A program made the position numbers. A stretch of 64,000 nt of DNA, taken from assembly GCF_002854065.1 (NCBI RefSeq), contig NZ_CP024152.1, one strand, 5' to 3'. Positions 15,001 to 18,000 of the stretch are shown here, piece after piece; within the stretch, counting starts at the first letter, position 1; every line of letters starts with the position of its first letter. Source of the stretch: Escherichia coli. GTDB lineage: Bacteria; Pseudomonadota; Gammaproteobacteria; Enterobacterales; Enterobacteriaceae.

Positions 15001-18000
15001 TCAGTCCCTGTTCAAACGTCTGCATCTTGCTGGTATTAAGATGGCGGAATGTTGCCAGTACATTGTCCAGGGTGATTTCAGGACAGGTGTCGCTCATCAG
15101 CTGGCTGTTCCACTCATCACGCTGGCATGAACTCATGAAGGTGTACATGCCCGTATCTGTCATCAGGCGGTCCCAGATTTTCCGGTCGGCAAGACGGGTG
15201 ATATTCCTTTTCGCTTCTTCCGGCTTATCCATGCGACGAACGGAATCAGTCACGCAGTCTTCAAACCCGTAAAGAAAAATATCACCTGACGCATCGAGCA
15301 GAATCCTGCGCGCTGTCGCCAGGCATTCCATCGCCTGCATGAATAGTGCAATACCTTCGTTACGCTGCGCGATGATGCGGTCGATAGCCACAGACGGAAT
15401 AACATCTGTCGTGCCGGCAGTATTCAGGTCAGCAGTGGGTAAAGTCTGATTCATCACATTGTCTCCTCATCGTCACGACTGCCGGGTCAGCCAGGTCATT
15501 TCCCGGAGGAGCGAAGCTCCTTCTGCCGTCCGGGTCTTAGGGTATTTCCCCGCAGTGGACCTTTCCGACGGGGGACGCTCACCACGTCACGGGGCAGTTG
15601 TCCGGGGGCAGACGCAAAAGTTTTTGACGCCAGCGGCAAAAAGTTTTGTGGCTGGTACATCTCTCCCCTGGACGACTGAAACGGGATGTGGTCGTGTATG
15701 TACCCCCGGAAAGTCCGTCTGCGGAGAACAGGCCGCAGTGCGGCGGCAGACAGGCAAGAGACAGCTGCGCCATCAGGCGCAGTGGCCTTACACACCGTAA
15801 GGTGTGCAGGGAGCGCCGCATCCGGCGCGTCTGAAGAAAAACGACGGCACAACAATGGCATGTGGTGGTCACTGGCACACCACTCCCGCACAGGTGAAAA
15901 CAGAGAAAACCGCACGACATTTACAAACAAAAAAAGTGAAATTTCTTCACTTTTTTACACTTATTTATCGCGCTGATTTGGCAATTGTGATGATAAAATA
16001 AAGTGAAGTTTTTTCACTTTTTCAAAGGTGTTTTATGACCGGCTGGGAACTGCGAATCTGGCGAAAAAGCATGCTATGGTCACGCGAAAAAGCGGCCAGA
16101 GAATTTGGCGTGACGCAGAGAACATGGCACGCCTGGGAAAATGCGGAACAGGTGGACGTCACCGTCTGGAGGACCACTCAGGCACTTTCAGTCCGTGACC
16201 TGCTGCCTCACATGCAGGGGATGCGCAAGGCAGATATCATCAGGCGTCTGGAAAATGAACTGGGGGAAACGGCAGGGAATGTGTGAGCGTGATTCACAGC
16301 CTGGCAGAATGTCAGGCTACTGCTCATCAGGAAACAGCTTTTTCAGTTCTTCACCGGAAAGTCCGGTCGCCTCCTGAATCCGTTCCGGCGTCCAGCCCAT
16401 ATCCCGCAGCCGGCAGGCTATTTCCCGCGCCACTTCAAGAGCACCTTTTTCAAAACCTTTCTGTATAAGACGTTCTGCAATCGTCATGCTGTTTGCTCTG
16501 CTCCTGCTGACAAAAAAGCCCGGCATTTTGCCGGGCTGTGAGGTTCTCATCAGTGAATGATTTTCTTCAGTTCGTCATCGGAAAGTCCGGTAGCCTGCTT
16601 AATCTGCTCCGGCGTCATCCCCATTTTCTGAAGCTGGCACGCAATAGCCAGGGCTTTTTCAAGCGCACCTTCCATCCTGCCCTCCTGGCGACCTTTTTGC
16701 TCAAGACGTTCTGCGATAGTCATCAGTTTATCCTCATGCTGCGGCAGACGCTCAGCCAGCGCCCGCATAAATTCCGGTGATACAGAGTCCCCTGCGTTAA
16801 CGATGTAATGAATCAGAACACGCACCTGCTCGTCTGAAATTTCCACCATGACCTGCGGGAGTTTGTCCAGCAGCTCCATCATGTCACGATGGCGGATATG
16901 CTTCATCAGCAGCGTCAGTGCGGCCATCCGGCGATGGTTCATGATTTCATTGTCATCAACGACAGTGATATCAACCAGCGGAAACGGCTTTGTGTATATT
17001 TTAGCCGCAAGTGCCGGATTCTCAAAACAGTCCAGCCAGTTCATGCTGTACGGGTACGGGCTGCGCTCACCATGATAGAACAGCACAGGAATCACCAGTG
17101 GCAACGTTTTGTGCTGCTCCAGATGTCTCTGCATCGCCGCCACACTGTAACGTAACATGCGGAAAGGCATGTACAGATTTTCGGTGCTCTGGTGCTCGAT
17201 GAGCGTATAAACATAGCCGTCTTCACCCCCGGTGGTTTTCACACTCCAGAGGATATCGCTGGCGTACTGATGCAGGTCCGGCTCAACAAAGGTGGCGGGT
17301 TCCAGCTTCAGCGTGGACAGGTCGCACAACTGCCGGTACTCCGCCGGAAGATGCAGTTCCAGAAAATCTCTGGCGACGTCGGGATTCGCCAGGAACGACC
17401 GGAACGCGGCATCATGCGGCGTGGGCGTCGTGGTGGTTTTCTTCTTACTCACGGTTCCTCCTGGTGAGATGTCTGAACGTATCCTGCCGCCTGCACAGGC
17501 AGACGGCAAGGGTTAATCAGTGGCAGACCCGCTCAATTTCAAGCGCGCGGAGCAGGTGGCCCCATTCGCTGACTTTCATAGCGGGGATACGCACCCGCTT
17601 CTGCTCACTGCAGCGTCTGGCGATATGGCCGCTCATCGCCAGGACGTCCGGGTTAATCTCATCCTGTGCCAGCTCCTGACGTCTGAAGCGGGTATGGCGG
17701 TGCAGGGGTTTATTCTCCCGCAGGCACTCTTCACGCAGACGCTTTACATACTCGGCGGTTGCGAAGATAATTGATGGTCTCACAAATATTTCTCCTTATG
17801 TTGTTGATGACTGCCGCTCTTCCTGGCGGGGAAGTAACGGCGGAGAGAGGCAGGGTTTATCGCCCTGCCTTTTTTCATTTCGGACAGCGACGCAGTGCCA
17901 GCGCGAGCGCTTTCATCTTCCAGCCTTCCGGCGTGCGGTACATCACCTTCCAGTAGCCGTCGATGAACACATAATGGAAGCGCACCTCTTCAGTGCTTTC

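Follow-up and report, generated by a model that had tools for sequence, protein, structure and literature searches.

A free-standing RpnS-like tail gene downstream of the nuclease gene rpnP2 on IncI-type plasmids

Described Rpn systems

The closest described system is RpnP2, published as a plasmid-borne toxin and anti-phage nuclease (Zhong et al., 2023, PNAS 120:e2307382120; PMC10400941). For RpnP2 of ECOR13, RpnP2-L* is toxic and RpnP2-LS is non-toxic, RpnP2-S being produced from an in-frame internal start and neutralising the nuclease, and RpnP2-LS protects against T-even phages (PMC10400941). RpnL is both toxic and SOS-inducing and RpnS relieves both effects, the allele of ECOR13 being one with a tail that we refer to as type C (PMC10400941). 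Neutralisation has been attributed to binding of RpnS via the shared helical tail, with complex formation shown for RpnA, and Figure 1A of the same study depicts rpn genes with internal promoters (Zhong et al., PMC10400941). An initial annotation of the DNA studied here placed the locus within Rpn toxin/antitoxin biology, in keeping with the published RpnS from an internal start (PMC10400941); it overlooked the earlier characterisation of RpnP2 and the intragenic origin of its antitoxin.

Free-standing downstream copies of the tail, called “rpnSs” (e.g. ypaA), are likewise known, plasmids included, as is their loss by deletion or fusion, and YpaA/RpnE-Ss of K-12 is translated (PMC10400941). 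A different setting for small antitoxin-like genes is offered by the orphan antitoxins, which are enriched in the leading regions of plasmids and have been suggested to act against TA-type defences (Samuel et al., 2024, Nature; PMC11541004); Rpn is not mentioned in that paper, and an RNA-seq study of early conjugation with the IncI1 plasmid pESBL is silent in its text on rpn induction.

The nuclease gene and its intragenic antitoxin

The window analysed here is a stretch of 64,000 nt from Escherichia coli (contig NZ_CP024152.1 of assembly GCF_002854065.1). The annotated gene order of nikA/nikB, a DUF4942 gene, an HTH gene, the small ORF, the Rpn gene, ardA and psiA/psiB corresponds to an IncI-type leading region, flanked by nikA/nikB on one side and by ardA and psiA/psiB on the other, as initially proposed. 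Both minus-strand ORFs described at the outset are present, together with their overlap: the large ORF has a maximum extent of 16550..17509(-) and encodes 319 aa from TTG 17509, and the small ORF, 16317..16550(-) with 77 aa, shares one base with it in the motif TGATG. A Rpn/YhgA-like nuclease had been claimed for the large ORF, and this is borne out by a Pfam match to PF04754 (Transposase_31/YhgA-like; E 2.5e-78, residues 30–226 of the 319-aa ORF) and by a score of 184.7 bits for the Rpn family model TIGR01784 against a cut-off of 52.1. A length of 319 aa holds for the ORF; the protein itself is likely one of 300 aa that starts at GTG 17452 rather than at TTG 17509 (rpnP2, encoding RpnP2-L, 16550..17452, minus strand), because a Shine–Dalgarno sequence AGGAGGA (17456..17462, minus strand, read from the sequence) lies 5′ of this GTG, and both PGAP and the published constructs use the same start, the same ribosome-binding site and GTG being found in the published primers AO732/AO733.

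Comparison with the published material identifies the gene closely. Over promoter and 5′ end, 397 of 399 bases of the window equal gBlock AO591 (published RpnP2, ECOR13), and residues 1–187 of the protein are those of the ECOR13-type protein except for T6N. The catalytic residues of this PD-(D/E)XK nuclease were taken as those altered in the published active-site mutant of RpnP2 (D14A, D66A, E86A, Q88K); aligned with gBlock AO730, D14, D66, E86 and Q88 are all wild-type in the window protein. Sequence agreement of this kind and a position at the same plasmid locus make the window nuclease an RpnP2 allele (Zhong et al., 2023). None of the PADLOC models matches the Rpn protein or the tail, and an Rfam scan of 13.5–20.5 kb returned no family.

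The two alleles part from residue 188 onwards, where linker and tail are of type A in the window (repeats RQEG/RMEG) and of type C in ECOR13 (IQQG), with about 45% identity between them. Nevertheless, the internal start is homologous in both, with an in-frame Shine–Dalgarno sequence and ATG at the beginning of the tail. In the window, GAGGA (16731..16735, minus strand) stands 7 nt 5′ of the internal ATG and corresponds to the GAGGA that was mutated for RpnP2-L* (AO714); ATG 16723 is homologous to the validated internal translation initiation site (iTIS) of ECOR13 RpnP2 (AO714) and to residue 1 in the crystal structure of RpnA-S (7TH0). We infer that RpnP2-S starts at ATG 16723 in the window, giving a product of 57 aa (MTIAERLEQKG...KKIIH; 16550..16723, minus strand) in a reading frame common with RpnP2-L, and it is the predicted cognate antitoxin of RpnP2-L. 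Helix 1 of this tail contains two 4-aa repeats, GRQE GRME (16670..16693, minus strand), in a hypervariable region. A candidate internal promoter for RpnS, a sigma-70-like TTGAGA-16-TAAAAT from a consensus scan (16998..17025, minus strand), is located inside rpn about 275 nt 5′ of the internal start, and the sequence 5′ of the iTIS is kept in all tail-A loci. A dN/dS estimate on the 200 codons 5′ of the iTIS was invalid, as mosaic alleles misalign and counts are equal at the three codon positions. By extension from the tail-C allele of ECOR13, the tail-A allele would be toxic and SOS-inducing, relieved by its RpnS and active in phage defence.

The downstream tail gene and its junction with rpnP2

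Alignment against the Rpn/RpnS families, as initially suggested, shows that both the large ORF and the small tail match TIGR01784, the latter over model positions 225–273 (E 2.9e-7). Residues 22–72 of the small ORF align with residues 263–317 of the large ORF at 62% identity (E 8e-18), and its last 56 residues are a paralogue of the nuclease C-terminal domain, as the initial annotation had recognised. At the DNA level the repeat consists of two pieces offset by 12 nt (76% over 109 nt and 82% over 33 nt) and ends at the two ATGs of the tails; the likeness is far above chance. We refer to the downstream copy as tail B (16317..16487, minus strand), a paralogue of RpnS with 56 aa (MTIAERLIQKGFEKG...LFPDEQ), 62% identity to RpnP2-S and a single 4-aa repeat, GFEK (16446..16457, minus strand), whose number varies among plasmids and contigs. 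In being a small same-strand ORF directly 3′ of rpn that is RpnS-like from its first methionine to its end, tail B agrees with the RpnSs class. Its closest relative is tail A (62–64% identity), followed by tail C (43–51%) and by RpnE-S/YpaA (37–40%). Pfam gave nothing significant for the 77-aa ORF, and PF14261 (DUF4351), the Pfam family to which separate RpnS genes of some species are assigned, had no match at E ≤ 10. Some database copies of tail B carry a precomputed match to PF27070.1.

Both RpnP2-S and tail B align with RpnA-S (7TH0) from Met1 (MTIAERL...) through the helical bundle, albeit with a weak sequence match (E 0.04–0.3) and with a helix 1 whose length depends on the repeats. For tail B the AF2 model is helical (pLDDT 82), and 7TH0 is its best match in the PDB, with 44% identity and a TM-score of 0.55–0.66 and a Foldseek E of 0.58, which is non-significant for this 56-aa helical domain.

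The junction between the two genes was compared in 62 related loci. The tandem in-frame stops TGATGA (16547..16552, minus strand) are kept in 60 of them, and the embedded ATG opens a leader of 21 codons over the junction (16488..16550, minus strand), the same codons with which the 77-aa ORF begins. Junction length is 62 nt in 41 loci, the window included, and 61 nt in the other 21; leader and tail share a reading frame in 41 loci, and the leader is one base shorter in 20, where it stops at a TGA overlapping the tail ATG (ATGA), and broken in one. For the 61-nt-junction plasmids PGAP annotates products of 56–72 aa from the MTIAERL ATG. Since the leader does not continue in frame into the tail in 21 of the 62 loci, the conserved small protein is, going by the reading frames, the 56-aa core from ATG 16487 and not a 77-aa protein, a candidate that we rejected. 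Of the translationally coupled 77-aa ORF proposed in the initial annotation, the 77-aa product is thereby lost and a part of the coupling is retained: some coupling may occur, as the leader from TGATG reaches the tail ATG in 61 of the 62 loci.

Within these same 21 codons lies an intrinsic terminator (16511..16537, minus strand; hairpin 16537–16517) with a 9-bp stem including 7 G-C pairs, an AAA loop and a T6 tract. Its hairpin has an RNA dG of -22 kcal/mol (z -4.3) and occurs in each of the 20 junction variants, among which there is one compensatory change from A-T to G-C. Further downstream, an AGGAG (16501..16505, minus strand) is kept in nearly all junction variants and is probably a weak Shine–Dalgarno sequence for ATG 16487, weak because its spacing of 13 nt to the ATG is long. 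The consensus scan found no promoter of the small ORF. Read-through of the terminator or coupling via the leader ORF are possible routes to a tail B product.

The arrangement resembles ypaA/rpnE-Ss and rpnC-Ss, each a small same-strand ORF right after rpn with a tail duplicated from the iTIS methionine. YpaA also differs from the upstream RpnS in repeat number, having one extra KLEG, and loss by deletion or fusion is seen among the chromosomal copies and the plasmid tail genes alike. In K-12, however, ypaA follows after a gap of 12 nt with a strong ribosome-binding site, AAGGAGAG, that was duplicated with the tail, and with no terminator in between, whereas in the window the gap of 61–62 nt holds tandem stops, a conserved terminator and only the distant AGGAG. 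Moreover, the tail copies in the window are 62% identical and not a recent duplicate, and the downstream tail pairs with unrelated tails A or C. ECOR13 shares the terminator junction (61 nt, against 62 nt in the window) and a B-type tail ORF downstream, both seen in primers AO619, AO671 and AO740; the ECOR13 constructs used for experiments never included the intact downstream tail ORF.

Variation of the tails and the role of tail B

According to the initial annotation, the two ORFs form an operonic pair of toxin and RpnS-like inhibitor, in which the small ORF would be a coupled trans-acting antitoxin of the adjacent Rpn, beside or instead of the intragenic RpnS. The 62% identity of tail B and RpnP2-S over the whole domain agrees with this, as do the presence of tail B with nearly every RpnP2 plasmid (2,030 against 2,036 records), the ATG in the rpn stop that opens a frame to the tail ATG and the translation of the K-12 analogue. 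Against this, the published RpnP2 constructs end 101 nt after the stop (about position 16449 of the window), so that the small ORF is cut at about codon 13, and they are non-toxic while RpnS is made (PMC10400941); inhibition thus does not depend on the small ORF. A conserved terminator separates the genes, and the same tail B is found behind nucleases with the unrelated tails A and C.

Repeat numbers weigh against a cognate pair as well. The 4-aa repeats range from 0 to 6 in the Rpn tail among the 62 related loci and from 0 to 7 in tail B among related plasmids and contigs, with two and one, respectively, in the window. Only 2 of 59 loci have the same number in both tails, compared with 16% expected by shuffling (P about 0.002, with shared ancestry ignored); the tails differ by -5 to +4 repeats and the two numbers have a Spearman rho of -0.28 to -0.40. 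In the case of RpnC, one extra repeat abolished neutralisation by RpnC-S, a repeat-matching rule known for RpnC alone, and K-12 YpaA and RpnE-S are one repeat apart. Equal repeats in so few loci, taken with the loss of RpnC neutralisation through a one-repeat mismatch, weaken the idea of a cognate pair, and specificity by a matched helix-1 repeat number, the determinant in RpnC, is not what these loci display. Given the identity of 62%, tail B may still cross-bind RpnP2-L or RpnP2-S, and as a trans-acting antitoxin of its neighbour, beside or instead of RpnS, we regard it as unlikely.

The comparison with other IncI plasmids, also proposed at the outset, shows how regularly the small gene is kept. 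Tail B is present in about 2,030 plasmids, accompanying the nuclease in essentially every carrier plasmid, and is uninterrupted in about 2,027 of the 2,030 (>99%); plasmids with an intact copy span IncI1, IncI-gamma/K1, IncB/O and IncK2/Z. Of 5,426 complete E. coli genomes, 1,340 contain it, nearly always on a plasmid. Frameshifted or truncated alleles are all rare (L070, L003 and several metagenome singletons). The pN/pS of tail B is 0.36–0.55, not significantly below 1 (one-sided P 0.086). Because the repeats change in steps of 12 nt, the frame is preserved by default, which makes the intactness of the ORF only moderate evidence of function.

A degraded second rpn copy, the other option in the initial annotation, finds no support, as the ORF is intact and the junction of only 61–62 nt is without any trace of nuclease-domain sequence, and we rejected it. 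A narrower form of decay is that the small ORF is a non-functional leftover, an old tail severed when a new tail and terminator recombined into an ancestral rpn, which would have persisted through linkage and young plasmid age alone. Such a history would suit a gene with a terminator upstream, a poorly spaced Shine–Dalgarno sequence and no promoter found, a pN/pS of about 0.4–0.5, occasional broken alleles and repeats whose slippage keeps the frame without selection. It is harder to reconcile with an ORF unbroken in more than 99% of plasmids across these incompatibility groups, with the rarity of every disrupted allele, with a repeat region that diversifies like that of functional RpnS proteins, with expression of the K-12 counterpart and with a locus in which tail B serves as the tail of a full-length Rpn. 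On balance a mere leftover seems improbable to us.

Natural variants provide a further view of the tails. Three types (A, B and C) occur on one nuclease scaffold, and tail B stands behind both A- and C-tailed genes, the combination of tails C and B being found in L006, L008 and ECOR13. B-type tails are usually free-standing, with one fusion among 60 sampled plasmid records and with the best 120 protein matches all short. In the fusion L069 the nuclease N-domain is joined to tail B as a full-length Rpn, and a triple arrangement (L007) has Rpn followed by two tail genes. As judged from these fused and tandem-array sequences, the tails are exchangeable modules. Of 15 minor alleles compared for signs of gene conversion between the two tails (A and B), 7 agreed with the paralogue, the expected share being about one third.

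The reading that we favour, and hold to be the probable one, is that the locus is the RpnP2 TA/anti-phage module of IncI-type plasmids followed by an extra RpnSs-class tail B kept as an orthogonal spare. The repeating unit would be [stop + terminator + MTIAERL... tail], and recombination at the near-identical 21-nt segment coding for MTIAERL would stack, swap and fuse such units, as the natural variants suggest. Tail B would be made at a low level by read-through of the terminator, possibly aided by the leader ORF, which would hand ribosomes on from the rpn stop to the tail ATG. In function it would be an RpnS-like, orthogonal dimerisation protein and a spare tail open to exchange, and it would not be what chiefly inhibits the nuclease next to it.

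Two further readings look beyond the adjacent nuclease. The window gene resembles the orphan antitoxins of leading regions (Samuel et al., 2024; PMC11541004) in being a small antitoxin-like gene oriented like ardA and psiB, and differs from them in having a cognate-type toxin directly upstream. As an orphan antitoxin or anti-defence protein, tail B would be made early from the leading region in new recipients and would neutralise B-tailed Rpn nucleases of resident rival plasmids or of the host. Its orientation within the leading region, its position between two ssi/Frpo-like hairpin elements, the enrichment of orphan antitoxins in such regions (PMC11541004) and the existence of a full-length B-tailed Rpn (L069) are in line with this. 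Targets are scarce, however: B-type tails in E. coli are found at 2,612 plasmid places versus 30 chromosomal ones and are usually free-standing, which leaves essentially no chromosomal targets with such tails; tail B is only 37–40% identical to the chromosomal RpnE tails, and its hypervariable repeat number would rarely match a target. We consider this reading very unlikely. A related one, doubtful in our judgement, holds that tail B is deliberately kept orthogonal, given that it and the Rpn tail hardly ever have the same number of repeats, and that it is expressed by a relay in which the leader would pass ribosomes from the rpn stop over the terminator to the tail B ATG. Its use would then be one of two: to be produced early from the leading region as an orphan antitoxin that counters the B-tailed RpnP2 of competing IncI-type plasmids, or to provide a cassette by which the plasmid could switch the specificity of its own Rpn toxin and antitoxin in one recombination step.

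The finding is real and largely known, since the toxic nuclease, its intragenic antitoxin and the optional free-standing tails, which make up the main biology, have all been described before. Modest additions are the definition of what the small gene actually encodes, a conserved terminator and a leader in the junction, the natural fusion and array variants, and the observation that the tails vary independently with lengths that almost never match. Together they make the question of what rpnSs genes are for a concrete one. About a quarter of complete E. coli genomes carry the locus on IncI-type resistance plasmids, and with a locus this widespread the way in which the nuclease is held in check bears on the fitness of the plasmid, on defence against phages and on damage to host DNA.

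The nuclease gene is rpnP2

Analysis of the maximal 319-aa ORF (16550..17509, minus strand), which shares one base with a downstream 77-aa ORF (16317..16550, minus strand) in TGATG, returned matches to PF04754 (Rpn/YhgA-like nuclease; E 2.5e-78) and TIGR01784 (184.7 bits against a cut-off of 52.1), in agreement with the initial annotation of an Rpn nuclease. The size of 319 aa given there holds for the maximal frame, but the protein is likely to be 300 aa long, starting from the GTG at 17452 behind AGGAGGA, a start also chosen by PGAP on identical plasmids and used in the published RpnP2 constructs. 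Rpn toxin-antitoxin systems are "genes within genes": the full-length product, RpnL, is the toxin, a nuclease, and RpnS, the C-terminal tail separately translated from an internal start, blocks it (Zhong et al. 2023, PMC10400941). RpnL is bound by RpnS, with complex formation demonstrated for RpnA; the RpnA-S crystal structure is a dimer formed via the long first helix; and plasmid-borne RpnP2 of E. coli ECOR13 confers protection from T-even phages (PMC10400941).

The window locus is RpnP2; the initial annotation had read the system of 2023 correctly. The published gBlock AO591 matches window positions 17752-17354 (minus strand) at 397/399 bases, and D14, D66, E86, and Q88, all four altered in the published active-site mutant, are wild-type. 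The GAGGA at 16735-16731 and the ATG at 16723 correspond to the internal start mutated for RpnP2-L* (AO714), and the same ATG matches the position of residue 1 in 7TH0, the crystal structure of RpnA-S. Compared with the ECOR13-type allele, residues 1-187 are identical except for T6N, whereas the linker and tail from residue 188 (residues 188-300; window 16550-16890) share only ~45% identity; the RpnP2 allele in the window is therefore a mosaic, its tail being of another type.

Distribution and leading-region setting

The 1.9-kb segment is found in 2,036 PLSDB plasmids, and the small ORF in 1,340 of 5,426 complete E. coli genomes, nearly always on plasmids. The gene order is that of an IncI-type leading region: nikA/nikB, DUF4942, an HTH gene, the small ORF, rpn, two small ORFs, ardA, and psiA/psiB. 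Homologous elements of ~290 nt at 15540-15830 and 18399-18682, with blocks 87-95% identical, bracket a block made up of a 144-aa ORF, an 88-aa ORF, rpnP2, and the tail ORF, and the plus strand at 18380-18700 forms a single long hairpin when folded as ssDNA (dG -98 kcal/mol, z -9.6). These elements resemble single-strand promoters of the ssi/Frpo type, and rpnP2 would then be a candidate for early expression (zygotic induction).

The 144-aa (17875-18309, minus strand) and 88-aa (17517-17783, minus strand) ORFs upstream of rpnP2 are conserved and gave no NCBIfam or PADLOC match; the latter lies almost wholly inside the 300-bp 'native promoter' fragment of the published RpnP2 constructs. A 65-aa ORF (15804-16001, plus strand) overlaps the end of an ssi-like element. 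Some GenBank records place 'post-segregation killing protein PndC' in this stretch, where the RefSeq homologue is a hypothetical protein, and another record puts the name on the 144-aa ORF; since it is attached to different ORFs between records, the label looks unreliable. Two copies of a 38-nt direct repeat (15929-15966 and 15996-16033), each with the palindrome AAAGTGAA...TTCACTTT, lie directly upstream of the convergent 83-aa HTH gene (16035-16286, plus strand) and look like putative operator sites of this regulator. Between the HTH gene's stop and the small ORF, a hairpin (AGCCTGACATTCTGCCAGGCT, 16298-16318) overlaps the stop codon of the latter; it has a T-tract on neither strand and may be a shared 3'-end structure.

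The downstream tail gene and its junction

Residues 22-72 of the small ORF align with residues 263-317 of the large one at 62% identity (E 8e-18), and the underlying DNA repeat, 76-82% identical, ends exactly at the ATGs at 16723 and 16487, its two aligned pieces being offset by 12 nt, or one 4-aa repeat. The original observation of a nuclease followed by a paralogous tail is real and beyond chance. In some recent RefSeq records the small ORF (16317-16487) is labelled 'RpnC/YadD family protein'. A precomputed Pfam hit to PF27070.1 accompanies some of its database copies; PF27070 was absent from our local Pfam-A scan results for this ORF.

Between the tandem stops of rpnP2 (TGATGA, 16552-16547, minus strand) and the ATG at 16487 lies an intrinsic terminator (16537-16511, minus strand) whose 9-bp stem, with 7 of its pairs G-C, closes an AAA loop and is followed by T6 (RNA folding dG -22 kcal/mol, z -4.3). 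Related loci were sampled from 59 metagenome contigs, found by exact-pattern scan, and several plasmids, giving 62 loci with enough upstream sequence. All 20 junction variants keep the hairpin, and one A-T to G-C change among them is compensatory. Depending on the length of the T-run, the junction measures 62 nt (41/62 loci) or 61 nt (21/62). A 61-nt junction puts the tail in another frame than the ATG at the rpn stop, and PGAP then calls proteins of 56-72 aa from the MTIAERL Met; the conserved product across both classes is therefore not the proposed 77-aa protein but a 56-aa core (tail B; 16487..16317, minus strand). Residue 1 of this core aligns with residue 1 of RpnA-S, and its AF2 model is helical (pLDDT 82) with 7TH0 as best PDB match, at an E-value not significant for a domain so small.

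The translational coupling first suggested may hold in part: the ORF opened at the TGATG ATG crosses the junction uninterrupted in 61/62 loci. It is fused in frame to the tail in 41 and ends in 20 others at a TGA that shares bases with the tail's ATG. The open leader frame could be due to chance, independent lineages being few, and a role in ribosome relay or anti-termination is speculation. No promoter-like site was found before the small gene, and 13 nt separate its AGGAG from the ATG. In K-12, by contrast, ypaA is set 12 nt behind rpnE, its strong RBS is a duplicate, and no terminator intervenes.

Exchange, pairing and function of the spare tail

Free-standing RpnS copies 3' of rpn genes, termed "rpnSs", include ypaA after rpnE and rpnC-Ss; separate RpnS genes occur on both chromosomes and plasmids, and rpnSs can be lost when they are deleted or become fused to the N-terminal domain (PMC10400941). 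Natural variants of the window locus show that the stops, terminator, and MTIAERL... tail act as a unit. Plasmid p135-1 (IncK2/Z; NZ_CP080261.1 1238-2701) carries a C-tailed Rpn followed in tandem by an A-type tail ORF (the type of the window's Rpn tail) and a B-type tail ORF, the same junction preceding each of these two ORFs. In NZ_MZ152086.1 (1072-1995) both tail A and the junction are gone, and the nuclease domain is fused to tail B with no downstream ORF. Tails of at least three families (A, B, and C, the ECOR13 tail C having IQQG repeats) circulate at one plasmid locus, and the 21 nt coding for MTIAERL are nearly identical in all tail copies, from which we infer a recombination site. When tails A and B were compared for gene conversion, 7/15 minor alleles matched the paralogue against about one third expected, which gives no clear signature.

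The initial annotation proposed a cognate operonic pair, and we consider it unlikely that the small protein is a true trans-antitoxin of the adjacent nuclease. In RpnC, one extra 4-aa repeat in either partner abolishes neutralisation and one in both restores it (PMC10400941). Counted in both tails of each locus, repeats number 0-6 in the Rpn tail and 0-7 in the downstream tail (2 and 1 in the window); they are equal in 2/59 loci against 16% expected by shuffling (P ~0.002, by a permutation that ignores shared ancestry) and in 1/42 unique tail pairs, with length differences of -5 to +4 repeats and a Spearman rho of -0.28 to -0.40. Tail B follows A-tailed nucleases and also, as in ECOR13, nucleases bearing tail C, which is unrelated. 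This mismatch and mixed pairing argue against a length-matched cognate pair, although the matching rule comes from RpnC alone and, at 62% identity, the tails may cross-bind; K-12 YpaA and RpnE-S are likewise one repeat apart. Published RpnP2 constructs are non-toxic while RpnS is made and toxic once the internal start is destroyed (PMC10400941). They extend only 101 nt past the stop, ending at ~window 16449 within ~codon 13 of the small gene, so the small ORF is not required to restrain the nuclease.

A silent relic is about as improbable. Against it we counted an uninterrupted tail B in ~2,027/2,030 plasmids by tblastn (IncI1, IncI-gamma/K1, IncB/O, and IncK2/Z), the rarity of disrupted alleles, which are singletons, and the use of tail B by the full-length Rpn of NZ_MZ152086; in its favour are a pN/pS of 0.36-0.55 (one-sided P 0.086), slippage of 12-nt repeats, which keeps the frame without selection, and the poor expression signals. 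A leading-region orphan antitoxin directed at B-tailed Rpn proteins elsewhere has a conceptual precedent (PMC11541004), but B-type tails are nearly all plasmid-borne, mostly free-standing, and seldom nuclease-fused, making this very improbable.

The locus is thus probably best described as RpnP2-L/S (toxin and intragenic antitoxin) plus an RpnSs-class spare tail, which would be weakly expressed and orthogonal, and would serve as an exchangeable module rather than as the main inhibitor. The system itself has been known since 2023, and what is new concerns only the particulars of this one downstream gene.
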